Shown one piece after another: positions 14,545 to 64,000 of a DNA stretch of 64,000 bases. The notes under the pieces were generated by a model. It searched no databases. It worked only from the letters and a program-made list of their open reading frames with translations, and was not told the origin of the DNA. The position numbers were made by a program, and so were the translations under genes. The stretch is from a virus: positions 1 through 64,000 of the IMG/VR virus record IMGVR_UViG_3300045988_150026, one strand, 5' to 3'. Every line of letters begins with the position of its first letter. The stretch's first letter is position 1.

Positions 14545-15015
14545 ATGGGTATATTTTTACAAGATACAGAATTAGTTCATTTAATGAATAAACGAGACAT
14601 TATGTTAGACGAGTGTGTAAGTTCATATGTCAACGGTGATTTTCCAAATTTGAGAAATCAGCTTGAAGAATCTAAGGATATTAGGAAAGAATTTAGAGAA
14701 ACATCACATTCCTGTTCTGATTCCGACAGGCTCGTCATATTAGCAAGTCAATTTGTAGAAACTTGTGATATTTTTGAAAGGCTGTTGCACGAAGAATTAG
14801 TTAGAAAGGAAATGAGATAGATATACAGAAAAATAAAAGAATTACTACAAGGTCTTAAAAGGCGATATTTATACGACGCATGTTACACTCAGCGAGAAAA
14901 AGAGGGTTATGCTATATTTGAAAAGTGTGGTGGATGGGTAGGAGGTACATGGACGACAGGCTATTTATCTGAGAGATGTATAGATTGCCCATACTACATT
15001 GAACTGGAGGATTGA
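14545..15015 (+). pseudogene. ORF with in-frame TAG at 14818: nonsense-interrupted or read-through gene
   Basis: A 91-aa ORF ends at TAG 14818-14820. The same frame stays open for 64 more codons (IYRKIKELL...KCGGWVGG...CIDCPYYIELED) with no in-frame ATG, GTG or TTG. Confidence 0.5.
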
Positions 15016-15022
15016 TATTTTT

Positions 15023-15166
15023 ATGAAATACATAGATAAAGTAGAAGCGTGGTTATATCGGTTTGTTGATGGGGAATTGAGAAATTTACACCGGATTTAT
15101 ATGATGGTGTCTTATGTTTTTATTAGGATGAACGTAGATTTCAAAATTAGGAGTGGTATTATATGA
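15023..15166 (+). CDS. hypothetical small protein
   Basis: 47 aa. GGAGG RBS 10 nt upstream. ATGA overlap with the next gene. Confidence 0.4.
   Translation: MKYIDKVEAWLYRFVDGELRNLHRIYMMVSYVFIRMNVDFKIRSGII
15128..15144 (+). repeat. intercistronic motif copy ATGAA-CGTAGA-TTTCAA
   Basis: Immediately before the TAGGAG RBS of 15163. Confidence 0.5.
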
Positions 15167-23139: not shown

Positions 23140-23162
23140 CTTTCATGGGTAATAAGATGATT

Positions 23163-23268
23163 GTGGGTACAAGGTGTTTTCTTTATGCATATAAGAAGTC
23201 TGATTTCGAGAATCAGTTTGATAGTGCTGGACTACTGGTAAGAATGGGTTCGAGTCCCATCGCCCACA
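23163..23268 (+). tRNA. tRNA-like element, non-canonical length; candidate anticodon loop TTCGAGA (CGA, Ser)
   Basis: Canonical T-arm ATGGG-TTCGAGT-CCCAT (23244-23260). Acceptor GTGGGTA/CGCCCAC has 5 Watson-Crick pairs, a G-U and one mismatch. 5-7-5 stem-loop CTGAT-TTCGAGA-ATCAG (23200-23216). The D region (about 30 nt) and variable region (27 nt) are too long for a standard tRNA. Confidence 0.4.
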
Positions 23269-23344
23269 ACACACTGAATCAAGATTGAATGCAATAATCG
23301 AAGTAAGGAATGATTTACTTGGTAGATTGGAAGAGGTGATATAA

Positions 23345-29477: not shown

Positions 29478-30164
29478 ATGTATTTCACACAACAACAGTA
29501 TGACAGGATGATCATGACGCAAGAAGAAGCTGAAAAGATTGGGGAGAAATATCTGTCAAATAACATGGCAGAACTTAACAGTATTTTAAATGAGTTGATT
29601 AAGAAAAAACGGATGCCTAGGTTTTTTAATGATGATTTAAAAAGTCTTGGGTATTTAGTATTTACTCAGAGCATTGATACATACGATCCAAACCAAACTG
29701 CCTCTTTCAAAACCTATTTATGGGGAAATATTTGGAAAAAATTTTGGACATACTCAAGAGATTTAACAAATCCTATGAGATGTGCAAGAGAAATGCAATG
29801 GAACGAAGATGAAAAACGTTGGGAAGAAACCCCCGTATTTGACATTTCAATATTCGCTAGAATAAATGAGGATGATTCAAAGGAACTTTGGGAAAATTTC
29901 TCGGAAGACGTATCAATCGAAGACGAAGTAATGCAAGACCTTTTTTCAGATAGCTATAATGACTTCTCAAATGAAATGAAAACTTATTTGGATGGTCTTT
30001 CTGGTCTACAAAAAGAAATATTATACATGCTTGCGGATGGCTTTTCGCAAACAGAAATTGAGGATATCTTACATATTAATAAGGATATATACAATGACAG
30101 CACAAGTGCGATTAAAAATAATATAAGAACAAGAGAATTAAGGAGAAAATACAATGTTAAATGA
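29478..30164 (+). CDS. sigma-70-family RNA polymerase sigma factor
   Basis: 228 aa. Region 2-like SLGYLVFTQSIDTYDPNQTASFKTYLWGNIW. Region 4 HTH LSGLQKEILYMLADGFSQTEIEDIL. Confidence 0.6.
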   Translation: MYFTQQQYDRMIMTQEEAEKIGEKYLSNNMAELNSILNELIKKKRMPRFFNDDLKSLGYLVFTQSIDTYDPNQTASFKTYLWGNIWKKFWTYSRDLTNPMRCAREMQWNEDEKRWEETPVFDISIFARINEDDSKELWENFSEDVSIEDEVMQDLFSDSYNDFSNEMKTYLDGLSGLQKEILYMLADGFSQTEIEDILHINKDIYNDSTSAIKNNIRTRELRRKYNVK

Positions 30165-31635
30165 ATACAGATTAGAAACACTAAATATATCACAGTATAT
30201 GGAATCAGTAGAAGACGGTGACATTAAAGTAGATCAGGCAGTACAGCGTGCCTTCTGCTGGAGCAATGAAATGATTAACAATCTAATTTACTCAACAGTT
30301 GCAACGAAGAGAGTGTATATCCCAAATATAATTCTCGCAGAAGAAAACCATGACGATGGAACAACTCAAACTTATGTAGTGGATGGTGGTCAAAGAACAG
30401 AAGCAATCAGACGTTTTATTTTTGACGGATATAAAATTACCAGATCGATTAGAAATCGTTACATTGAATATCAGGATAATAAGATTGATGAAAATGGAAA
30501 AGTAGTTCGTGATGAAAATGGTGACATTGTAAAAGAGATTAAGGTTTTTGACCTCGTAAATAAGACGTATGATGATTTTCCAAAAGAGTTAAAGAAAAGG
30601 ATGGGCAAATGCAAGCTTGCTGCGGCAGTTTATCAGGACTGTACCCCAGAAGAAACTAGTGATCTCGTACTGTTATACAACTCAACTGTGAGCATGTCAC
30701 CGTCACAGAAAGCATTGACATATATTGGTGCTTTCGCTGAAAGAATTAAGAATATTACAACTCATGACTTTTTAATTAATGGGACAACCCTTTCCGAGAC
30801 AGATAAAAAGAAAGGAAACTGGGAGCGAACAATATCCGAGTGTGTTATGGCAGCGAGATATTTTGACGACTGGAAAAAGAACCCAAAAGATATTTGTAAA
30901 TATTTAAACGACAATGCGAAAGAGAAAGATTTTTCTGTGGTTGAAGGGTATTTTGATAAACTTAGTCGGTTTTCTAATAAGCTTCAGAATATGAAGATCG
31001 TAGAACTATTCTCGGCAAAAAATTTGCCAGCATGGATGTTGGTGATGAAAGAATTAGAGAATAAGGAAGTATCAGATAAAACATTTAGAGAATTCTTGTT
31101 GTCATTTGATTCAGCCAAAGGAACAGAAATAGATGGAAGCACGTGGTATGAATTAGAAAATAATAAACATACAAAAGACAAAAAGTTAATTTTAGCAAAA
31201 GCAAATTACATAAACAAACTCCTTTCAGATTACATAAACGGAAATCCTGAAGTTGACGAAGAAAAAAATTTTGAAAAAATAAATTCAGATGATTCTGAAA
31301 TGGAAACCATTGATTTTGTGAAACAGTTCGTTGATCCGGATTGTACAGACGAAGATATTGATGATTATTTTGGATATCTTGAATCATGCATAAAAGATCT
31401 CAGAATTGTGAAGGCTGATTCTCCTGTAGTTGCACCAGAAAATGAAAATGCAATTATCGCAGTTGTTGCTTATGCATATAAACATGATATTGATATGGAT
31501 TTGTGGTTGCAGAGGTATTCAATTAGCCATAAAACTTTCCCAGAAGAAATGTCGCAAGGAGATAGATATAAAACTATGTTACATAGTCTAGTAAATTTTC
31601 TTAAAATGCAAAAGAAAGTGGGTACAAAAGTATGA
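30154..31635 (+). CDS. DUF262 (ParB-like / GmrSD N-terminal-type) domain protein
   Basis: 493 aa. VDQAVQRAFCWS...YVVDGGQRTEAI corresponds to the QR...DGQQR motifs. No HNH or DUF1524 motif seen in the C-terminus. Confidence 0.65.
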   Translation: MLNEYRLETLNISQYMESVEDGDIKVDQAVQRAFCWSNEMINNLIYSTVATKRVYIPNIILAEENHDDGTTQTYVVDGGQRTEAIRRFIFDGYKITRSIRNRYIEYQDNKIDENGKVVRDENGDIVKEIKVFDLVNKTYDDFPKELKKRMGKCKLAAAVYQDCTPEETSDLVLLYNSTVSMSPSQKALTYIGAFAERIKNITTHDFLINGTTLSETDKKKGNWERTISECVMAARYFDDWKKNPKDICKYLNDNAKEKDFSVVEGYFDKLSRFSNKLQNMKIVELFSAKNLPAWMLVMKELENKEVSDKTFREFLLSFDSAKGTEIDGSTWYELENNKHTKDKKLILAKANYINKLLSDYINGNPEVDEEKNFEKINSDDSEMETIDFVKQFVDPDCTDEDIDDYFGYLESCIKDLRIVKADSPVVAPENENAIIAVVAYAYKHDIDMDLWLQRYSISHKTFPEEMSQGDRYKTMLHSLVNFLKMQKKVGTKV

Positions 31636-43041: not shown

Positions 43042-43647
43042 ATGTATAGATATATTGCAGATTTACATATTGGCTGCACAAACTCTTTTGAACATCGTAC
43101 TTTAGAGTATGATGAGATTCTTATTAAGAACTGGAACTCTGTAGTTAAGAATAATGATACAACATTCATTCTAGGTGATATTGGTAGATGTGGCAATAAT
43201 AAAGATAATGAATATTTGTGTTCTGTTATTTCAAGACTCAAATCTAAGAAAATTTTAGTGGTCGGAAACCATGATGAAGTTGGTCTAAAAGATTACAGGG
43301 TGAAACAACTATTTGAAACTGTGGTTGATTATTTTGAACTTACTGATAATTACAATGGAATCAGTCAAAAACTTGTGCTTTCGCATTATCCTATCTTTTC
43401 ATGGAATGGTTGTTACAAAGATACAGTTCTTCTCTATGGTCATACACATGGCAACTTCGATGATGTCATCTATCAGGAATCCCTGGAAAAACTCAGATAT
43501 AAGGTAAGACAATTAAATACGGAGAATAAAGAAGTGAAGAAGTTTAAGAATCTTCCTTATGCTTATAATGTTGGTGCAATGATGGATTGGATTAATTATT
43601 GTCCGAGAACGTGGGAAGAGATTAAGGATATTTATATTTTGAGGTAG
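43042..43647 (+). CDS. calcineurin-like metallophosphoesterase
   Basis: 201 aa. ADLHIG, GDIG, GNHD and GHTHG motifs in the canonical order. Confidence 0.75.
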   Translation: MYRYIADLHIGCTNSFEHRTLEYDEILIKNWNSVVKNNDTTFILGDIGRCGNNKDNEYLCSVISRLKSKKILVVGNHDEVGLKDYRVKQLFETVVDYFELTDNYNGISQKLVLSHYPIFSWNGCYKDTVLLYGHTHGNFDDVIYQESLEKLRYKVRQLNTENKEVKKFKNLPYAYNVGAMMDWINYCPRTWEEIKDIYILR

Positions 43648-44802: not shown

Positions 44803-44951
44803 TTGGAGGAATAACGATGGAGATCAAAGAGACAATTAGTCTTCTTAAGGGCATTCAAAAAAGAGCTGCAAGGAATCCCATTAGCTTTAGCTGATAGATA
44901 AAGAGCTGTACAAAACAGCGAATATACAAATGAAAGTGAGGTGATAAGTAA

Positions 44952-46067
44952 ATGTTAAAAGCTTACAAATATAGATTACATCCTAATAAACAACAGGAAA
45001 TTCAAATACAAAAAACTTTCGGATGTTGTAGGTTTGTTTACAATTATATGCTTAATTATAAACAGGAGTTGTATGAAACGAAGAAAGAATTTATGAGTAA
45101 GTTTGATTGTAATAATTATGTGAATCGTGTTCTTAAGAAAGAATATGAATGGTTAAAAAATGTAGACAAATTCGCTCTTACAAATGCAATTTATAATATG
45201 GATTCAGCTTATCAGAAATTTTTCAAAGAACATACTGGTTATCCAAGATTTAAAAGTAAAAAAGATAATAAAAAGTCTTATAAAACAAATAACAATGTAA
45301 ATAAGGGAATAGCAACTATTCGTATTGAAAAGAATAGATTAAGACTTCCTAAAATTGGAATGGTAAGAATTGTTTATTCAAGAGAAATAACAGAAAGGAT
45401 AAAATCTGCAACTATTTCACAAGATCCATCTGGAAAATATTTTGCATCAATATTATTTGAAGCAGAATACGAATATTTACCAAAGAGCAATAATTCAGTC
45501 GGTGTTGATTTAGGAATTAAGGATTTACTTATCACTTCGGATGGTGAGAAAATTAAAAACATTCTTACTACAAAGAAATATGAAAATAAATTAACAAAAG
45601 AGCAAAGAAAACTTGCTAAGAAACAAAGAGGTAGTGTCAACTATGGGAAACAGAGAATAAAAGTAGCTAAAATATATGAAAAAATTCGTAATATCAGACT
45701 ATATAATTTACATCAAATTTCTCACAAACTTATAATCGAAAACCAAGTGATAGTGAGTGAGAATTTAAATATAGAAAGTATGCGACAGAATCATAATCTT
45801 GCAAAATCTGTATCTGGTTGTAGTTGGTACGAATTAACTAGACAGTTATTTTATAAGGCTGAATGGTATGGAAGAGAATATATAAAAATAGATAGATTTT
45901 TTGCAAGTAGTCAGTTATGTAATTGTTGTGGTTATCAAAACAAAGAGGTTAAAGATTTATCTGTTAGAGAATGGATATGTCCGGAATGTGGAACTGTTCA
46001 TGATAGAGATGTAAACGCTGCGATTAATATTCTTAATGAAGGATTGAGATTGCTAGAAGTAGCTTAA
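44952..46067 (+). CDS. tnpB: TnpB (IS605 OrfB-type RNA-guided nuclease)
   Basis: 371 aa. N-terminal [13 protein letters not shown]. RuvC residues VGVDLGI, VSENL and [11 protein letters not shown]. Zinc finger CNCCG...CPECG. Confidence 0.9.
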
Positions 46068-46160
46068 ATATAAAACATACGGCAATATCTGTCGGAATTT
46101 ACGCCTGTGGAGATAGTAGGTTACGAGGTTTATGAAGCAGGAAGGTTTATAAAAACCAGA
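46068..46160 (+). ncRNA. putative omega-RNA scaffold / right end of the first element
   Basis: ACGGCAATATCTGTCGGAATTTACGCCTGTGGAG...GAAGCAGGAAGG is homologous to the 3' coding and right-end region of the second element. Extent not determined. Confidence 0.4.
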
Positions 46161-46222
46161 TAAAAACAATATTTCAAGTGGAGAATAAATAATATGTAGC
46201 ATATATAAAGGGAGGTAGTTTT

Positions 46223-47080
46223 ATGGATAGAAGTGATCTCGCAGAAAGAATGAAAGGCTATGAAAAAAGGAATAGATATTATCTTCAGCGAAGGATGCCA
46301 GTAATTTTGAGGCTAGACATGAGAGCTGGACATAGCTTCACAAAAGGATTTGAAAGACCGTTTGATGAAGTTTTTATTAAAGCAATACAAGAAACGGCAA
46401 AATATTTATGCGAAAATGTTCAAAATTGTAAGTTATCTTATCAACAAAGTGACGAAATTACATTATTACTTGTTGATTATGAAAAAATAAATACAGATTG
46501 TTTCTTTGAATATAGAGTAGATAAACTTTGTAGTATTGCAGCAAGTATGGCTACGATGAAATTTAATCAAGTTTTTAAAGAATTATCTTATAGAGAGTCA
46601 GAAAATTTGGAAATTATTTGTAGAAAAAATCCATATTTAGAAAACAGAGATTGTTTAACTAAAATTCCTAATGTACATACCAATTCAGCAGATAAAGGTG
46701 CAATGTTCGATTGCAGATGTTTCAATATTCCAAAGGAAGAAGTAACTAATAGCATTTATTGGCGACAACTTGACGCTACACGAAACTCTATTCAGATGGT
46801 AGGACAAGCTAATTTTTCGCACAAAGAATTGCAGAACAAGTCTTGCAACGATATTCAGGATATGCTTATGACTCAGAAAGGTATTAATTGGAATGATTTG
46901 CCGCTATATCAAAAACGTGGATCTTGTTGTATTAGAAATCATATGATTTCACTACCATATGGCGATTACCTGCTAGATGAAACCGCAGGTGAAAACGAAT
47001 GGATTATTGATAAAGATATTCCAATCTTCAAAGGTGAAGGTAGAAAATATATTGATAATCTTGTTTTCGTAGGAGAATAA
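46223..47080 (+). CDS. Thg1-like protein (tRNA-His guanylyltransferase family, 3'-5' nucleotidyl transferase)
   Basis: 285 aa. PVILRLDMRAGHSFTKGFERPFDE and YQQSDEITLLL correspond to the Thg1 RxDG..F...F.KP.D and SDE metal-binding motifs. Confidence 0.7.
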   Translation: MDRSDLAERMKGYEKRNRYYLQRRMPVILRLDMRAGHSFTKGFERPFDEVFIKAIQETAKYLCENVQNCKLSYQQSDEITLLLVDYEKINTDCFFEYRVDKLCSIAASMATMKFNQVFKELSYRESENLEIICRKNPYLENRDCLTKIPNVHTNSADKGAMFDCRCFNIPKEEVTNSIYWRQLDATRNSIQMVGQANFSHKELQNKSCNDIQDMLMTQKGINWNDLPLYQKRGSCCIRNHMISLPYGDYLLDETAGENEWIIDKDIPIFKGEGRKYIDNLVFVGE

Positions 47081-49077: not shown

Positions 49078-49584
49078 ATGAAGAAAACAAAAATTATTAG
49101 TGCATTTCCTGCTTGTGGCAAGACATATGCTTTTAAAAAATTAAACGAAAAAGGTTATAAGATTCTCGATAGCGATAGCAGTCAGTTCAGTTGGTGTTAT
49201 GATTATGATCCAACCAATTCAGATAAAATTGAAAAGTATCGTAATCCAGAATTTCCAAGTAATTATATTCAGCACATTAAGGAGAATATTGGAAAAGCTG
49301 ATTATATTTTTGTAAGCAGCCACAAAGAAGTAAGAGATGCTTTAATTGAAAATGGAATCTCTTTTACATTGGTTTATCCTGACAGAAGTATGAAAGCTGA
49401 GTGGATCGGTAGAATTTTCTTGCGTGGAAGCGGAGAAAAATTCTGTCAGCTCATTGCAAATAATTGGGATAGTTGGATTGATGAGATGGAAGAAATTGAG
49501 TGCGACAAATGGATTCTTGGAGATAAAGAATCAATTGACAAATACTATTACATTGGCGAATTGATAGAGAATAAATTGATTTGA
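49078..49584 (+). CDS. P-loop NTPase / kinase-like protein
   Basis: 168 aa. The N-terminus IISAFPACGKTY is Walker A-like. Confidence 0.5.
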   Translation: MKKTKIISAFPACGKTYAFKKLNEKGYKILDSDSSQFSWCYDYDPTNSDKIEKYRNPEFPSNYIQHIKENIGKADYIFVSSHKEVRDALIENGISFTLVYPDRSMKAEWIGRIFLRGSGEKFCQLIANNWDSWIDEMEEIECDKWILGDKESIDKYYYIGELIENKLI

Positions 49585-51811: not shown

Positions 51812-52915
51812 ATGTTAGTAGCATATAAATATAGATTATATCCAAACAAAGAACAGCAAGCATACTTTGCGAAGTGTTTTGGATGTGTACGATTCATCTA
51901 CAATCGTATGCTTTCAGATAAGATTGATTATTATAAAGAAACAAAACAGAAATTAAACAATACACCAGCTCAATATAAGAAAGAATTTGAATGGTTAAAA
52001 GAGGTTGACTCTCTTGCATTGGCAAATGCACAGATGAATCTACAGGCAGCTTACAATAATTTTTTCAAAAGACCAGAAGTGGGCTTTCCTAAATTTAAAA
52101 GTAAGAAAAGTCATAAATTTTCTTATACAACTAATAATCAAGGTGGAAATATTTATGTATCTGATAGGTATATAAAACTTCCTAAAATTGGTTTGGTTAG
52201 AGTAAAGAAACATAGAGATTTTGATGGATTAATTAAGTCTGTTACTGTTTCTCAAAACCCTTCTGGTAAATATTATGTCTCTGTTTTGGTTAGCCAAGAA
52301 GACAAAGAAAAACTACCTATTAACAATAACGAAATAGGAATTGATCTTGGTATTAAAGAATTTGCAATTACTTCTGATGGAGAAATGATTGAGAATCCAA
52401 AATATCTTAGAAAGTCTGAAAAGAAATTAAGAAAATTACAAAAGAATTTATCTCGTTGCAAAAAAGGAAGTAAAAACAGAGAAAAATGTAGAATTGAAGT
52501 TGCAAAACAACATGAAAAGATTACAAATCAAAGAAAAGATTTTTTACATAAATTAGCTACGAGAATTATTCGTGAAAATCAAACAATAGTTCTTGAAGAT
52601 TTAAAAGTAAAAAATATGATGAGTAACCATAAATTAGCAAAATCAATTGCAGATGTATCTTGGAGTGAATTTGTAAGGCAATTGGAATATAAAGCTGATT
52701 GGTATGGACGAGAAATTATAAAAATTGATACTTGGTATCCATCTAGCCAGATATGTTCTAATTGTGGTCACAGAGATGGAAAGAAAGCATTGTCTATAAG
52801 AGAATGGACATGTCCTAATTGCGGAACGCATCATGAAAGAGATATTAATGCAGCAATAAATATTCTCAATGAAGGTTTGAGAATGAGAACGGCAGGAACT
52901 GTCGAGATAGCCTAA
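51812..52915 (+). CDS. tnpB: TnpB (IS605 OrfB-type RNA-guided nuclease)
   Basis: 367 aa. [13 protein letters not shown]. RuvC residues IGIDLGI, VLEDL and [11 protein letters not shown]. Zinc finger CSNCG...CPNCG. Confidence 0.9.
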
Positions 52916-52981: not shown

Positions 52982-52997
52982 AGATAATATTCCAAAG

Positions 52998-53234
52998 ATG
53001 CTAAAAGTAATTAGAGAATATATAGAAGAGTCTGAGTTATACAGGGAATGCATGGATAGAGTTGATAAGCTTCATTTCGACTCACAGAAAACAGCAATGA
53101 TAAACGGAGCGCACAGTCATCAAGAAAAAGCAGATGAACTGGCAGAAATTATGAATGATGGAATTAGTCCTTATGCTTGGTATTATCATGATGCTATGCA
53201 GTATGGGTATGTTGTGTATTTGGATAATATTTAA
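52998..53234 (+). CDS. hypothetical protein
   Basis: 78 aa. No RBS; the start lies 16 nt after the IS right end. Confidence 0.45.
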   Translation: MLKVIREYIEESELYRECMDRVDKLHFDSQKTAMINGAHSHQEKADELAEIMNDGISPYAWYYHDAMQYGYVVYLDNI

Positions 53235-54404: not shown

Positions 54405-55334
54405 TTGAGCAATACAAATGAAAGAAAAACTTCTACAGATGGACTTAGAGTGTTAAGTCTCTGTGGTGGTGTAGAAACTGGATTATACGCATTACAGCAA
54501 TTGGATATTCCGGTGAAAGAGTATCATACATATGAGATTCTGCCTGAAGCTATTGCAGTTTCTCAGTACCATTTTCCGTTTGTGATACATCATGGTGATT
54601 TATATGAAGCGGATTTTAATCAATTCAAAGGATTTGACTTGTTATTAGCAGGAACTTGTTGCCAAAGTTTGAGTAAAGTCAGAATAGAAAATAAACAAGT
54701 CAACAATGGTTTAGATGGCAAATCAGGTATTTTCTTTAAAGCCATCGAATGTCTTAAGGTAATTCAGCCAAAATATTTCATGTTTGAAAATGTAATACCG
54801 AGTAGAGAAGAGGATCTAAATACAATGACAGAATGCATTGGTGTTGACCCCTTGCTTATTGACTCTGCAATTTTTAGCGCACAGTCGAGAGAAAGATATT
54901 ATTGGACAAACATTCCATTGGGTGAATTACCGGAAGAATCTCCATTAGTTTTAAAAGACGTGATGGAGAATAATGTAAATGAGAAATATTTCTATAAAAA
55001 AGATTTTGAAATCATCGACATGAATAAACGTGTTTGTGCAGAGTTAAAGGTTAATACGATGGAGATGGGTAGACGTATCTATAATCCTGAGTTTAAGTGT
55101 TGTACATTAACGTGTGTTGGTGGTGGATACAACGAAAAGAAAGTTATGGATCATGACAGACCACGAAAATTAACACCTGTTGAATATGAAAGATTACAGG
55201 GACTACCGGATAGATATACGGATGTATTAATAAATGGAAGAAAAATAAGTGATACGAAACGATATTCTATGATGGGTAATGGTTGGAATGAACCGACAGT
55301 AGAGTGGATATTAAGTGGATTGAAAAAAGTGTAA
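54405..55334 (+). CDS. DNA (cytosine-5) methyltransferase
   Basis: 309 aa. TTG start. Motifs LSLCGGVETG (I), GTCCQSLS (IV, PCQ variant), MFENV (VI), RERYYWTN, QGLPDRY, GNGWN (X). Confidence 0.8.
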   Translation: MSNTNERKTSTDGLRVLSLCGGVETGLYALQQLDIPVKEYHTYEILPEAIAVSQYHFPFVIHHGDLYEADFNQFKGFDLLLAGTCCQSLSKVRIENKQVNNGLDGKSGIFFKAIECLKVIQPKYFMFENVIPSREEDLNTMTECIGVDPLLIDSAIFSAQSRERYYWTNIPLGELPEESPLVLKDVMENNVNEKYFYKKDFEIIDMNKRVCAELKVNTMEMGRRIYNPEFKCCTLTCVGGGYNEKKVMDHDRPRKLTPVEYERLQGLPDRYTDVLINGRKISDTKRYSMMGNGWNEPTVEWILSGLKKV

Positions 55335-55429
55335 GAAATTTTCTTTTTACAGGCGTTTGCAACCGCCTTGAAAGCAAGGAGTTTTTTAAAATCAAGAAAG
55401 GTGAAAACAGGTAAATTCTAGAATAAAGA

Positions 55430-55441
55430 GATTGCGCAATC
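55430..55441. promoter_or_regulatory. 12-bp perfect palindrome GATTGCGCAATC upstream of the second methyltransferase gene
   Basis: Lies 8 nt after AATTCTAGAATAA and 25 nt before ATG 55466. Confidence 0.4.
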
Positions 55442-55465
55442 CCCTATAGATAAAGGATTTAAATA

Positions 55466-56443
55466 ATGATAAAAAGCATAAATTCATTCGGACTAACGGT
55501 ATTAAGTTTATGTGATGGAATGTCGTGTGGACAGATAGCGTTAGAACAGGCAGGTTTTAAAGTCGATAAATACTTTGCGTCAGAGATTAAAGACATTGCA
55601 ATTAAAGTAACCAAAGAAAATTATCCAAACACAATTCATATTGGTGATGTAAATAAAATTTTCTATAAAGATGGAATATTACATACTGAAGTCGGAGATT
55701 TTGAAACAAATATTGATGTAGTTATGTTTGGAAGTCCTTGTCAAAGTTTCTCGAGAGCAATGATTAAAGAAAGAAAAATTGGTTTGGATGATCCAAAGCG
55801 TTCAGGTTTGTTTTATGAATGTAATAGAGTACTAAGAGAAGTAAATCCAAAATATTTTCTCATGGAAAATGTTGTTATGAAAAAAGAAGATGAAGAAGTT
55901 ATCAGTAAAATGATTGGAGTAAAGCCTATTAGAATCAATTCTTCTCTTGTTGTTGGTCAACTTAGAGATAGGTATTATTGGACTAATATTCCAGAAGTTA
56001 CAGTACCGGAGGATAAGAAAATAACATTGCAAAGTATTTTAAATGATGGTTATACGCCTGACAAGAAAGCAAAATGTCTTCGTAGAAATGATTCACATGG
56101 ATTTTACAACGGATGCGGTTGGACTCCGATCAAAAGATTCCATAGGTTTTACTATAAATCTTTTGGAACAATGGTATTTCCATCAAAGGAATATTTTGAA
56201 AATTGTTTGGAAGTAACTAAGAAAATATTAAATGGGAGAAAGTCGTCAGCAAAAATGTATGATGATTACAATGGTCATGATTTTGATGATGCAAGATATT
56301 TATGGAAAGAAGAAAGAGCAAGGTTGCAGGGAGTTCCTGAAGAATATGTGAAATATATGTCTGAAAAAGACGCTGCTGACGTTCTTGGAGATGGTTGGAC
56401 AGTACCAGTAATTGCTCATATCTTTAGTTTTATGAAGTTTTAA
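55466..56443 (+). CDS. DNA (cytosine-5) methyltransferase
   Basis: 325 aa. Motifs LSLCDGMSCG (I), GSPCQSFS (IV), MENV (VI), RDRYYWTN, QGVPEEY, GDGWTVPV (X). Confidence 0.85.
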   Translation: MIKSINSFGLTVLSLCDGMSCGQIALEQAGFKVDKYFASEIKDIAIKVTKENYPNTIHIGDVNKIFYKDGILHTEVGDFETNIDVVMFGSPCQSFSRAMIKERKIGLDDPKRSGLFYECNRVLREVNPKYFLMENVVMKKEDEEVISKMIGVKPIRINSSLVVGQLRDRYYWTNIPEVTVPEDKKITLQSILNDGYTPDKKAKCLRRNDSHGFYNGCGWTPIKRFHRFYYKSFGTMVFPSKEYFENCLEVTKKILNGRKSSAKMYDDYNGHDFDDARYLWKEERARLQGVPEEYVKYMSEKDAADVLGDGWTVPVIAHIFSFMKF

Positions 56444-58421: not shown

Positions 58422-59729
58422 ATGTATTGTGCTTATGTTACAACATTAAAAGGATTAAGAAAACATAGTAATGCAGATAGATTACAGTGTGTTGAAGTTT
58501 TTGGACAAAATGTAATTGTTGATTTGAGCTATAAAGATGGACAAAAGGTAGTTTTCTTTCCATCTGACGGACAATTATCAGAAGAGTATGCAAAAGATAA
58601 TAATCTCGTAAGAATGAAAGATGAAAATGGTAATAATATTGGCGGATATATGGACGCTGAAAAAAGAAATGTTACTGCGATTAGACTCAGAGGTGAAAAA
58701 TCAGAGGGTTTAGTATTGCCTATAGAATCACTTTCTAAGTATGTGGATGTTACAAAATTAAAAGATGGAGATCAGATTACCGTCATTGGTGGTCATGAAA
58801 TCTGTAGAAAATATATTCCAAAAAGTAGTAGAAGAAGCAACAACTCAAGAAAAAGTAGTGATAAGAAGAAAAAAGATAACTCGATTTCTTATCCATTCTT
58901 CGAAGAACACAAAGATACTGCACAGCTTGCGTATAATATGTCTGCGTTTAAACCCGGTGATACTGTATATATTACCCGTAAGCTTCACGGCACGTCAGCT
59001 CGTACCATGAAGACAATTAAAGTAACAAAGAAGAATAATGTATTTAGAAGATTTTTACATATGAAACCTAAATACGAAAAAGAAGTTTCTGTAGTTACAG
59101 GAAGTAGACGAGTTGTATTAAAAGATATGAATAGTACAGATGGTTATTATTCAGATAATACATTCAGAAAGAAATATCACGATTTGTTAAAAGACAAACT
59201 TCCGGAAGGATTTGAAATTTTCTATGAGATTGTTGGTTATGTAAACGAGACAACACCAATCATGGGAACTGTGTCAAACAGCAAAGTAAAAGATAAAGAA
59301 TTCAAGAAGAAATTTGGAGATACAACTGTATTTTCTTATGGCTGCAAACCAGGTGAAAACGAAATGTATGTGTATAGAATGACTGCAACAACAGCAGATG
59401 GTACAGTTGTGGAAATTCCTTGGGAGAATATAAAAGTATGGTGTGACAAACTTGGTGTAAAACATGTACCAGAATTGGAAAAATTTATCTATACAACGCC
59501 TGAAGACTTAAAAGAAAGAGTAAATAAGTATCTTGATGGTATGCCAGTTGATGAGATTGGTAAAACACATATTGCAGAAGGTGTAGTTGTTCGTATTGAC
59601 AATAGAGATTCATTTACTGCATATAAAGATAAAGTGTTCGAATTCAAGGTATGTGAAGGAATTATTAAAGACAATTCAGACGCACCAGACATGGAAGAAG
59701 CAGAAGAATTGCTTAAGGAGATTGTATAA
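58422..59729 (+). CDS. ATP-dependent RNA ligase, Rnl2/Rnl5-like with N-terminal OB-like domain
   Basis: 435 aa. Motif I RKLHGTS (KxHG lysine). The N-terminus NADRLQCVEVFGQNVIV...GQKVVFF resembles a tRNA-binding OB fold. Confidence 0.7.
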   Translation: MYCAYVTTLKGLRKHSNADRLQCVEVFGQNVIVDLSYKDGQKVVFFPSDGQLSEEYAKDNNLVRMKDENGNNIGGYMDAEKRNVTAIRLRGEKSEGLVLPIESLSKYVDVTKLKDGDQITVIGGHEICRKYIPKSSRRSNNSRKSSDKKKKDNSISYPFFEEHKDTAQLAYNMSAFKPGDTVYITRKLHGTSARTMKTIKVTKKNNVFRRFLHMKPKYEKEVSVVTGSRRVVLKDMNSTDGYYSDNTFRKKYHDLLKDKLPEGFEIFYEIVGYVNETTPIMGTVSNSKVKDKEFKKKFGDTTVFSYGCKPGENEMYVYRMTATTADGTVVEIPWENIKVWCDKLGVKHVPELEKFIYTTPEDLKERVNKYLDGMPVDEIGKTHIAEGVVVRIDNRDSFTAYKDKVFEFKVCEGIIKDNSDAPDMEEAEELLKEIV

Positions 59730-60619
59730 TGAATAAGCCAACATTATGGGTTATGGTCGGTTTGTCTGGAAGTGGTAAATCAAGTGTAGCAAAAGAAATC
59801 GCAGAGAATAATTCTAACACAATTATCGTATCATTAGACAATATTTGTGAAGAATTGACTGGTAAAGTAGAAGATCAATCTAAAAATGAAGAAGTATCTA
59901 AAGTATTTCACAAAAGAATTCGTGAGACATTGGAGAATAATACTAATGTAGTTGCTGATGCGACAAATATTACAATGAGGTCGAGACGAGCAATTATTGA
60001 AAATGTCAAAAGTATTGAATGTCATAAAATCGTTTATCTGATTCCAAAACCATTTAGACAATGCAAAATTGATAACCTGAATAGACAACATCCTGTGCCT
60101 GAAGAAGTATTAAATGGGCAGCTTAGAAAATTCCAGATTCCGTTCATGGAAGATGGTTTTGATGAAGGAATTATTTATTACATACATAATAAAAATAGAT
60201 TGGATGCGTTAAAAATGTTTGATAATATGGAAGGTTTTAATCAACAAAATCCGCATCATACTTCAACACTTGCAGACCATTGCAAGAATGCGCATGAATT
60301 GTTTTCAAGACATGGTTATCCGTCAAAATATAATTTGGCAGCGTTATTTCATGATTATGGGAAATTGTACTGTAAAGAATTAGATGATGATGGAATTGCA
60401 CGTTTTTACGGACATGATTCAATTGGTTCATATATGATTTTAGAAAATTTTGCAGAAATATTTTATAAAGATGTTGCCGATATGTGTTTTTTAATTAACT
60501 ATCACATGATGCCTTTTGATTGGACAACAGAAAAATCTAAGGAACGTTGGAAGAAAAGGTTTGGAGAATATAAATATCAGATGCTTTTGGATTTTCATGA
60601 ATGCGATAAAGCGAGGTGA
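59729..60619 (+). CDS. P-loop polynucleotide-kinase-like domain fused to an HD phosphohydrolase domain
   Basis: 296 aa. Walker A GLSGSGKSS. C-terminal NPHHTSTLADH...LFHDYGK (H..HD). ATGA-type overlap with the ligase stop. Confidence 0.7.
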   Translation: MNKPTLWVMVGLSGSGKSSVAKEIAENNSNTIIVSLDNICEELTGKVEDQSKNEEVSKVFHKRIRETLENNTNVVADATNITMRSRRAIIENVKSIECHKIVYLIPKPFRQCKIDNLNRQHPVPEEVLNGQLRKFQIPFMEDGFDEGIIYYIHNKNRLDALKMFDNMEGFNQQNPHHTSTLADHCKNAHELFSRHGYPSKYNLAALFHDYGKLYCKELDDDGIARFYGHDSIGSYMILENFAEIFYKDVADMCFLINYHMMPFDWTTEKSKERWKKRFGEYKYQMLLDFHECDKAR

Positions 60620-63520: not shown

Positions 63521-63781
63521 ATGAAGGAACTATTGTTAGAGTATATGGATAGCATTAATGCTGAAGGAATAGACTTTGTTAGTCTTGGTTTTCCGCTTGA
63601 TGGTATTGTTTATAAGTCATACACAAGAGACGACTTTGAAAAGAATGGAATAATCCTTAAAACAAACAGAGTCATATGGAGAATAATCAATGGTGAGAAA
63701 CATTATTATTGTGGCGAGAATGATTCGGGACATGTGACGTGGAAAGATTTAGAAGGTTATAGAAAGGAATTTGCGAAATGA
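63521..63781 (+). CDS. hypothetical protein
   Basis: 86 aa. GGAGAATAA junction. Confidence 0.55.
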   Translation: MKELLLEYMDSINAEGIDFVSLGFPLDGIVYKSYTRDDFEKNGIILKTNRVIWRIINGEKHYYCGENDSGHVTWKDLEGYRKEFAK

Positions 63782-64000
63782 GATTTTCTGAAGCAATCGA
63801 ACATCTTCTTAACGGAGAATATATAAGAAGATCAGAATGGCGTAAAGATTTTTATATCAAACTTGAAGACGATGCAATTGTAGATTGTGATGGATCAGCA
63901 GAAGTGTTCTATAGCAAAGACATTTTTGCTAATGATTGGGAGATATATCAGCCTAAATTAGATGTAGGTACAGTTATTCAACATCATGACGGTACAATCG
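63778..64000 (+). CDS. DUF2829 (Tad2-like) domain protein, 3'-truncated by the window end
   Basis: MRFSEAIEHLLNGEYIRRSEWRKDFYIKL...IFANDWEIY matches the M.F.EA...L..G..v.R..W....yi....l.a.DWei pattern of DUF2829. The ORF continues beyond 64000. Confidence 0.6.
   Translation, partial: MRFSEAIEHLLNGEYIRRSEWRKDFYIKLEDDAIVDCDGSAEVFYSKDIFANDWEIYQPKLDVGTVIQHHDGTI

Follow-up and report, generated by a model that had tools for sequence, protein, structure and literature searches.

A stretch of viral DNA of 64,000 nt, referred to as the window, carries a gene at positions 46223–47080 whose product is an intact, selected Thg1-like protein (TLP) of the bacterial type, as judged by its functional residues, its predicted fold and the dN/dS values of its relatives. 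We think that this TLP is probably an active enzyme that restores 5′-truncated acceptor ends of tRNAs by templated addition and would act within the dispersed RNA-repair set of the phage.

Identity, active site and fold of the phage TLP

The gene and its leader are located as follows:

46223..47080, + strand: TLP gene, encoding a bacterial-type Thg1-like protein of 285 aa (Pfam, PHROG and PDB matches; residue conservation; AlphaFold2/Foldseek; dN/dS)
46160..46222, + strand: TLP leader of 63 nt with a GGGAGG ribosome-binding site (homology to the sibling loci L006, L007, L009 and L012 resumes at 46160)

The open reading frame begins with an ATG, and the strong ribosome-binding site GGGAGG lies 7 nt upstream of this start. 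A search with the Pfam model of Thg1, which the preliminary description of this DNA had suggested as a check, assigned the family with 95.9 bits against a gathering cut-off of 29.2 bits (PF04446; E=2.3e-27; profile positions 2–130 of 130). The C-terminal Thg1C domain gave a weak Pfam score of 20.2 bits, under its cut-off of 26.3. PHROG 4717 (phrog_4717, “tRNA-His guanylyltransferase”) matches with E=1.1e-83, and no NCBIfam model matched the protein. Among solved structures, the closest by sequence is BtTLP (4KGK, E=1.2e-60); archaeal MaTLP (5AXK) gave E=1.3e-11 and the eukaryotic Thg1 structures of yeast, Candida and human E=8.7e-8 to 8.9e-4. By these E-values, the phage protein is nearer to the characterized TLPs than to eukaryotic Thg1. 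The three Thg1 motifs that had been noticed from the letters alone are located at residues 30–32 (RLD; R30-L31-D32), 43–49 (F.RPFDE; F43-E-R-P-F-D-E49) and 76–78 (SDE; S76-D77-E78). A HINNLYN segment is diagnostic of eukaryotic Thg1, as known from the Jackman-laboratory literature; where yeast Thg1 has this segment, EEVTNSIY is found in the alignment with TLP.

The catalytic carboxylates, whose loss had been named in the preliminary description as evidence against the assignment, are all present. D32, D77 and E78 align with D30, D75 and E76 of BtTLP and with D29, D76 and E77 of hTHG1, and they are conserved in 119–122 of the sequences in an alignment of 124 diverse TLP relatives. The NTP-contacting residues are E14, R30, K101 (the equivalent of ScThg1 K96), R165 and R181, and the activation site contains S76 and R45, the latter at the position of BtTLP Lys43. 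In BtTLP, roles in nucleotidyl transfer or activation have been assigned to E12, R28, R131, R147, K43 and S74 (PMC3701042). Ten residues of TLP (E14, R30, D32, S76, D77, E78, K101, R165, R181 and N188) match functional residues of BtTLP/Thg1, each of them kept in >95% of the 124 relatives. The arginine that replaces the activation lysine was rejected as a sign of inactivity: of the 124 relatives, 47 likewise have Arg at this position, and only the use of ATP depends on the lysine, since the BtTLP variant K43A loses ATP-dependent activation, keeps the GTP-dependent reaction and shows normal guanylylation (PMC3701042).

AlphaFold2, supplied with a 46-sequence alignment, modelled the protein with a pLDDT of 92.7 and a pTM of 0.90. 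All 32 significant Foldseek matches of this model in the PDB are Thg1/TLP structures, the best being 4KGM (chain 4KGM_B; E=4.5e-28, target-normalised TM 0.93), and the model thus predicts the polymerase-palm-like fold of the solved Thg1/TLP structures. The linker at residues ~118–162 is modelled as a helical hairpin. Its length of 44 aa is typical, and the 39-aa insertion relative to BtTLP is not a novelty, because the linker ranges from 6 to 81 aa in the 124 relatives. Pairwise dN/dS among the TLP relatives amounts to 0.15–0.38, indicating that the gene is under purifying selection.

The best reference for the phage protein is BtTLP (PDB 4KGK/4KGM; Hyde et al. 2013, PMC3701042), to which it is ~45–50% identical over two conserved blocks. 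Both share the three carboxylates, the NTP-contact residues, the fold (TM 0.93) and membership in the bacterial-type repair clade. They differ in the linker, which comprises 44 helical residues in the phage TLP and ~12 in BtTLP, and in Arg45 replacing Lys43, two differences that are common among the relatives; furthermore, BtTLP is encoded on a bacterial chromosome and the TLP studied here by a phage. Eukaryotic Thg1 (yeast 5XOX, human 3OTB, Candida 3WBZ) belongs to the same superfamily and has the same two-metal active site and two-step chemistry. It is specific for tRNA-His, to which it adds an untemplated G-1 opposite A73; repair by TLPs, in contrast, depends on a template.

Carrier phage, related phage genes and flanking insertion sequences

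The window has a G+C content of ~31–37%, a strong positive GC skew and genes nearly all on one strand. The identical TLP occurs on a 176-kb metagenomic contig. For a protein listed with 100% identity, 47 contigs are recorded, which reach up to 240 kb and come from numerous human-gut samples; one of them carries the label vOTU and one has been binned as Coprobacillus sp. Relatives sharing ~74% identity bear the name Caudoviricetes, NCBI already has a near-identical protein under a Thg1-like name, and no close relative of the window was found among deposited phage genomes. This suggests that the carrier is a phage of ~160–240 kb infecting human-gut Bacillota, by binning Coprobacillaceae. In this phage, TLP is an accessory gene. 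Other accessory genes in the window encode YopX, PcfJ, a ClpP-like protease, two C5 DNA methyltransferases and a sigma-factor-like protein, as well as an HNH endonuclease, a GmrSD-like protein, a tyrosine integrase and an SPFH protein; such an accessory set is typical of large phages. No structural genes lie inside the 64,000 nt.

Phage-encoded TLPs are numerous. Using tblastn, we found homologues in 161 GenBank phage records, including 46 from Bacillus, 15 from Prevotella Lak megaphages, 13 from Caulobacter and 11 from Mycobacterium; among the matches listed, nearly all of these records are 88–551 kb in size, and the annotation of most phage homologues already reads tRNA-His guanylyltransferase or Thg1. 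In IMG/VR, a TLP relative is found on at least 580 viral contigs. An exhaustive search of 1.84 billion cluster representatives retrieved 5214 clusters with E≤1e-3, of which 1049 reach E≤1e-30. The Bc431v3 genome paper of 2013 flagged the gene as possibly modifying phage or host tRNAs (PMC3601020), and Iyer et al. (2021) regarded Thg1 as the member restoring 5′-end nucleotides in a predicted jumbo-phage RNA-repair arsenal (PMC7824862, section 3.4.9) that also holds RNA ligases, Pnk, RlaP and a CCA-adding enzyme. In the literature, we found no experimental test, neither assay nor knock-out, of any phage TLP. The initial impression that Thg1-like proteins are not a standard component of phage RNA repair has to be corrected in view of PHROG 4717, the 161 phage records and PMC7824862. 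A TLP in a phage is not unusual, and the gene described here is an ordinary addition to a known and widely annotated class.

Members of PHROG 4717 are found in the Bacillus phages Bcp1 and Bc431v3 (gp143), Staphylococcus phage PMBT8, Fusobacterium phage Fnu1 and Pseudomonas phage 201phi2-1 (“putative Thg1”). They share with our TLP the family, the large genome size (88–551 kb) and a site among small early or accessory genes. However, identity to the TLPs of cultured phages is only 30–43%, the best match (50.7%) being an unannotated faecal phage fragment, and the immediate neighbours are not conserved. The annotated neighbourhoods of the Bcp1 and PMBT8 genes consist mostly of hypothetical proteins. 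A gene of 135 aa abuts TLP downstream and was considered as a conserved partner, but homologues were present in only 8 of the 80 related loci surveyed below; it shows no similarity to the gene 3′ of the Bcp1 TLP. A scan for promoters and terminators around the TLP gene revealed nothing beyond shuffle expectation.

Two insertion sequences (IS) flank the TLP gene:

~44805/44865..46159, + strand: IS200/IS605-family TnpB-only element 1, tnpB at 44952..46067 (NCBIfam IS200_TnpB, 488 bits)
~51692..~52981, + strand: IS200/IS605-family TnpB-only element 2, tnpB at 51812..52915 (NCBIfam IS200_TnpB, 519 bits)

The bracketing of TLP by two TnpB elements had been put forward from the sequence. Both elements are genuine, since 488 and 519 bits exceed the NCBIfam cut-off of 425 bits, but the arrangement carries no functional meaning, as either of them is absent from near-identical siblings that keep TLP. 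Element 1 is missing from five sibling loci with TLP (L002, L006, L007, L009 and L012) and element 2 from seven (L004–L008, L011 and L012); in the window, the latter takes the place of the 5′ part of a gene whose sibling copies are intact and encode 128 aa. Comparison with empty sites places the right end of element 1 at ~46159, 63 nt before the TLP start codon, in good agreement with the estimate of about 60 nt made beforehand. The left end of this element is uncertain and falls between about 44805 and 44865. The 63-nt leader is kept in genomes both with and without the upstream IS, and the position of TLP is invariant across siblings despite varying flanks. Because each IS is absent from some near-identical siblings and TLP is always there, the bracketing is incidental; by this comparison, it arose from two IS that entered a mosaic accessory region independently of each other and is not a mobilisation unit.

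These data also bear on the idea that TLP has no role for the phage and is a relic or a passenger, mobilised by the TnpB elements on either side. The two elements do flank a 5.5-kb segment containing TLP. However, the IS copies share only ~65% DNA identity and are lost independently of each other from near-identical genomes that have TLP in the same place, which is not the behaviour of insertion sequences and cargo moving as a unit. In addition, TLP is intact and under purifying selection, and TnpB is found near TLP in only 3 of 80 loci. We therefore regard passenger status as extremely improbable and, as far as empty-site comparisons can tell, refuted. Elsewhere, the slot just upstream of TLP is occupied by a LAGLIDADG gene (L095) or a NUMOD-type homing endonuclease gene (L047), and this junction seems prone to invasion by selfish elements.

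RNA-repair genes and tRNA sequences in the neighborhood

Three genes of the window were considered in connection with RNA-end repair:

43042..43647, + strand: calcineurin-like metallophosphoesterase, 201 aa (Pfam Metallophos 30.5 bits; PHROG 547 E=3e-31)
58422..59729, + strand: ATP-dependent RNA ligase (Rnl), 435 aa (PHROG 968 E=3e-68; Pfam RNA_ligase PF09414 43.6 bits, cut-off 27)
59729..60619, + strand: kinase-HD protein, 296 aa, with a P-loop polynucleotide-kinase-like domain and an HD phosphohydrolase domain (Pfam AAA_33, KTI12, weak HD)

The ligase and the kinase-HD gene had already been mentioned in the preliminary description and are indeed encoded in the same genome. The ligase also shows a weak match to the OB-fold model PHA02142 and no sequence match in the PDB. 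The kinase domain of the kinase-HD protein matches the kinase domain of C. thermocellum Pnkp (4MDE, E=2e-9) and also Pnkp1 (4XRP), making it a candidate end-healing enzyme. Its start overlaps the stop codon of the ligase gene by 1 nt, and the two proteins plausibly form a heal-and-seal pair. They are located ~11 kb (11.3 kb) and ~25 genes downstream of TLP and share no operon with it. In the sibling L012, RlaP and a CCA-adding enzyme are encoded 4 kb downstream of TLP, at the place of element 2 in the window. The metallophosphoesterase gene lies 2.6 kb upstream of TLP and keeps this position in the siblings L003–L012; a role in RNA-end healing would be speculative.

We surveyed the 10 kb around TLP in 80 IMG/VR loci, the TLPs of which are 49–75% identical to the query. 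tRNA genes were present within this distance in 22 loci, five of them with arrays ending no more than ~2 kb upstream. An RNA ligase was found in 10 of the 80 loci, a kinase-HD-like gene in 17, RlaP in seven and a CCA-adding enzyme or HD match likewise in seven. A single-copy gene placed at random in a 150-kb genome is expected within 10 kb ~13% of the time. Since the 10 loci with a ligase are about what random placement gives, the frequencies do not prove a linkage between TLP and repair genes, which would appear to be weak except in a few genomes. The clearest signal of TLP clustering with tRNA-end enzymes comes from three loci, all confirmed by Pfam: in L047 and L037, TLP is followed by RlaP, a CCA-adding enzyme and SIR2 within ~1–3 kb, and in L049 RlaP is directly downstream of TLP.

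The inventory of this phage lineage resembles the jumbo-phage toolkit (Iyer, Anantharaman, Krishnan, Burroughs and Aravind 2021, PMC7824862) in that ligase, kinase plus phosphoesterase, RlaP, CCA-adding enzyme, tRNAs and Thg1 all occur in it, with the phosphoesterase being of the rarer HD type and Thg1 being a sporadic member of the toolkit. In contrast to the latter, the components are scattered over >15 kb, RlaP and the CCA-adding enzyme are found only in some siblings, and the phage may fall under the jumbo threshold of ~200 kb.

ARAGORN and Rfam called no tRNA in the 64,000-nt window. Sibling genomes carry tRNA-Ile(UAU), tRNA-Gln(UUG) and tRNA-Leu(UAA) genes 3.7–4.6 kb past the position of its right end, without an encoded CCA. 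We looked for phage tRNAs with mismatches in the 5′ acceptor that might need editing, and only G1·U72 wobbles were observed.

A tRNA-like element at 23.2 kb had been proposed as an RNA that TLP might mature. ARAGORN and Rfam call nothing at this site; when the ARAGORN settings are relaxed, the resulting calls contradict each other. The fold of the element is no better than that of shuffled sequences (z=-0.86). A T-arm and acceptor-like ends that are complementary to each other can be recognised, and the 19 nt of the 3′ part occur identically in tRNA-His genes from various bacteria. The same sequence, with the A discriminator, forms the end of a genuine phage tRNA-Leu(UAA) in L152, and the element shows no alignment to tRNA-His in its D and anticodon arms. 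The full element is restricted to the window's own contig and six IMG/VR contigs. At sibling loci sharing the identical neighbouring gene, it is absent in 8 of 10, and the ninth (L161) retains a 48-nt fragment. To us, the element looks like a decaying remnant of a class-II tRNA. We rejected it as a tRNA-His-like substrate on the grounds that the 3′ part fits tRNA-Leu, the body does not align and most siblings lack it; as a decayed remnant missing from most siblings, it is presumably no TLP substrate, and the maturation proposal is unsupported. Likewise, nothing supports a function as attP core for the nearby integrase (0 of 52 exact genome matches in Erysipelotrichales).

Proposed role of TLP in tRNA 5′-end repair and alternative functions

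By analogy to characterized enzymes, TLP would contact a tRNA at its acceptor stem and elbow and leave the anticodon unread. A 5′-monophosphate end would be activated with GTP or ATP, with D32 and D77 holding two Mg2+ ions, and nucleotides would then be added in the 3′-5′ direction, with the 3′ strand of the stem serving as template for each of them. Addition should stop as soon as position +1 has been refilled or, on tRNA-His, G-1 has been placed opposite C73. During infection, host or phage tRNAs short of 5′-terminal nucleotides could be rebuilt in this way, and TLP would complement the ligase and kinase-HD pair as well as the RlaP and CCA-adding enzymes encoded near TLP in some relatives. 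In line with this scheme, templated 3′-5′ repair of tRNAs truncated at the 5′ end has been demonstrated for BtTLP and MaTLP. BtTLP repairs such tRNAs much faster than it adds G-1 (PMC3701042, Table 2), and tRNA binding by the archaeal MaTLP does not depend on the anticodon (PMC4820378). The same role has been predicted earlier for phage Thg1 (PMC7824862).

Enzymatic activity and tRNA substrate are what we infer for TLP, and so is any purpose in counter-defence. Phage TLPs might act against undescribed host immune nucleases that remove 5′-terminal nucleotides of the acceptor stem. Here, TLP would rebuild the 5′ end from the 3′ strand, CCA-adding enzyme and RlaP would handle 3′ ends and gaps, and ligase and kinase would handle breaks in the anticodon loop. 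This idea is plausible and not new; we put it forward only tentatively and consider it doubtful at present. A defence nuclease trimming the 5′ acceptor ends of tRNAs was not identified in this analysis. The counter-defence idea, if true, would give bacterial-type TLPs a physiological role for the first time. A further uncultivated gut phage among hundreds with a Thg1-like gene has little weight alone, but the class deserves attention: its confinement to large phages and the occasional tight clustering with RlaP and CCA-adding enzymes would fit tRNA-end repair in an arms race. The repair role can be tested directly in culturable carriers of TLP such as Bacillus phage FADO with its host B. subtilis BEST7003.

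Taken literally, the annotation of the family describes a dedicated tRNA-His maturation enzyme, which would add G-1 to phage or host tRNA-His for charging by histidyl-tRNA synthetase. TLPs are indeed able to add G-1 opposite C73 through a second, anticodon-dependent binding mode (PMC4820378), and three related phages encode tRNA-His(GTG) 5.7–6.2 kb upstream of TLP. These three genes, however, already encode G-1 opposite C73, as in bacteria, so its addition would not be required. Moreover, only Ile, Gln and Leu tRNAs, and no tRNA-His, were found in the window and in the sibling stretches that extend ~10 kb past its right and <5 kb past its left end. The phage protein also resembles BtTLP, a repair-type enzyme, much more than it does eukaryotic Thg1, and G-1 addition by BtTLP is much slower than repair of truncated tRNA. 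We therefore judge this function to be rather unlikely and less likely than tRNA 5′-end repair.

It is also unlikely, in our view, that TLP acts on something other than tRNA, by rebuilding or NTP-activating the 5′ ends of transcripts or structured RNAs, or by forming cap-like adducts. The chemistry would allow for it: activation produces App- or Gpp-RNA as an intermediate, and reviews of non-canonical capping have discussed enzymes of the Thg1 type (PMC8131947). Furthermore, most of the TLP neighbourhoods in the 80 loci are devoid of tRNA and repair genes, and the hypervariable linker (residues 118–162, 6–81 aa) could tune the choice of substrate. On the other hand, all characterized members of the family use tRNA-shaped substrates, and the strands at residues ~241–250 of the AlphaFold2 model may be equivalent to the tRNA-binding β-hairpin of MaTLP. 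Finally, the conserved neighbours of TLP, where present, are the tRNA-end enzymes RlaP and CCA-adding enzyme.

Variable RNA-end repair genes in the neighborhood of the TLP

A sibling genome carrying the same Thg1-like protein (TLP), L012, harbors three genes at the site that is occupied in the window by TnpB element 2, an IS200/IS605-family insertion sequence. The same two tRNA-end enzymes, RlaP and the CCA-adding enzyme, are followed by a further gene in two other TLP-bearing viral contigs:

L012 14863-17257: RlaP, CCA-adding enzyme and a 306-aa unknown protein
L047 14371-15111 and L037 15642-16382: SIR2-family protein, directly 3′ of the RlaP and CCA-adding genes

The CCA-adding enzyme of L012 contains a PolyA_pol head, an HD and a tRNA_NucTran2_2 domain. 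Since L012 encodes RlaP and the CCA-adding enzyme where the window carries an insertion sequence, the RNA-end repair complement differs within one phage population, in which this gene set is variable. The order RlaP, CCA-adding enzyme, SIR2 is found in both L047 and L037, and the SIR2-family protein, an NAD-dependent enzyme, might be a member of the RlaP/CCA-adding module.

Insertions and accessory genes flanking the TLP

TnpB element 2 took the place of ∼154 bp (window 52982-53234 compared with 14637-15023 of sibling L005). The lost stretch included the initial ∼45 codons of a gene for a 128-aa protein. Siblings have this gene intact; what the window retains of it is no more than a remnant ORF of 60 aa. 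The slot directly 5′ of the TLP holds a TnpB insertion sequence in the window (44805-46159), a LAGLIDADG endonuclease in L095 (9043-9999) and a NUMOD/I-HmuI-like endonuclease in L047 (8893-9921). These differing selfish elements in different relatives suggest that the slot is a recurrent insertion hotspot.

Two other genes are located further away from the TLP:

L003-L005 and L007-L012, ∼4-6 kb away on the 5′ side of the TLP: adenylosuccinate-synthetase homologue (PF00709), 369-371 aa
Window 49078-49584, + strand: protein of 168 aa carrying a P-loop (GKT) at its N-terminus, phrog_4182 (E=1.8e-51), unknown function

The adenylosuccinate-synthetase homologue is present in most siblings but not in the window, where other genes (YopX and others) are found instead. 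Its short length raises the question whether it could be of the PurZ type, with a role in 2-aminoadenine DNA. The P-loop gene follows the TLP at a distance of 2 kb; it is also found close to the TLP in 5 of the 80 related loci.

tRNA-like remnant and phage tRNA genes

23161-23272, + strand: tRNA-like remnant with T-arm GGGTTCGAGTCCC and an acceptor-like stem of 7-8 bp
L096 and L097 13735-14611 (∼65715-66591 in window coordinates, just outside the window): phage tRNA genes Ile(UAU), Gln(UUG) and Leu(UAA)

The remnant, carried by some sibling genomes only, has an aberrant body of ∼80 nt, U at position –1, A as discriminator and no CCA. Its last 24 nt at the 3′ side match exactly the terminus of a genuine tRNA-Leu(UAA) encoded by a phage in IMG/VR locus L152; bacterial tRNA-His genes share 19 nt with it at full identity. 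All three tRNAs of the siblings L096 and L097 decode A-ending codons and none of their genes encodes CCA; in tRNA-Ile and tRNA-Leu, a G1·U72 wobble tops the acceptor stem.

Possible DNA modification and conflict genes

30154-31635, + strand: GmrSD-N-like (DUF262-type) protein
54405-56443, + strand: two adjacent C5 cytosine DNA methyltransferases
∼63778-64000 (running off the window end), L097 11798-12232 and L096 16632-16886: Tad2-like (PF11195) genes

The GmrSD-N-like protein and both methyltransferases fit functions in DNA modification or restriction conflict. The Tad2-like genes, whose family takes its name from an anti-Thoeris protein, are found a short distance 3′ of the SPFH gene. Upstream of the left end of the window, a RelA/SpoT-domain gene is found in L098.
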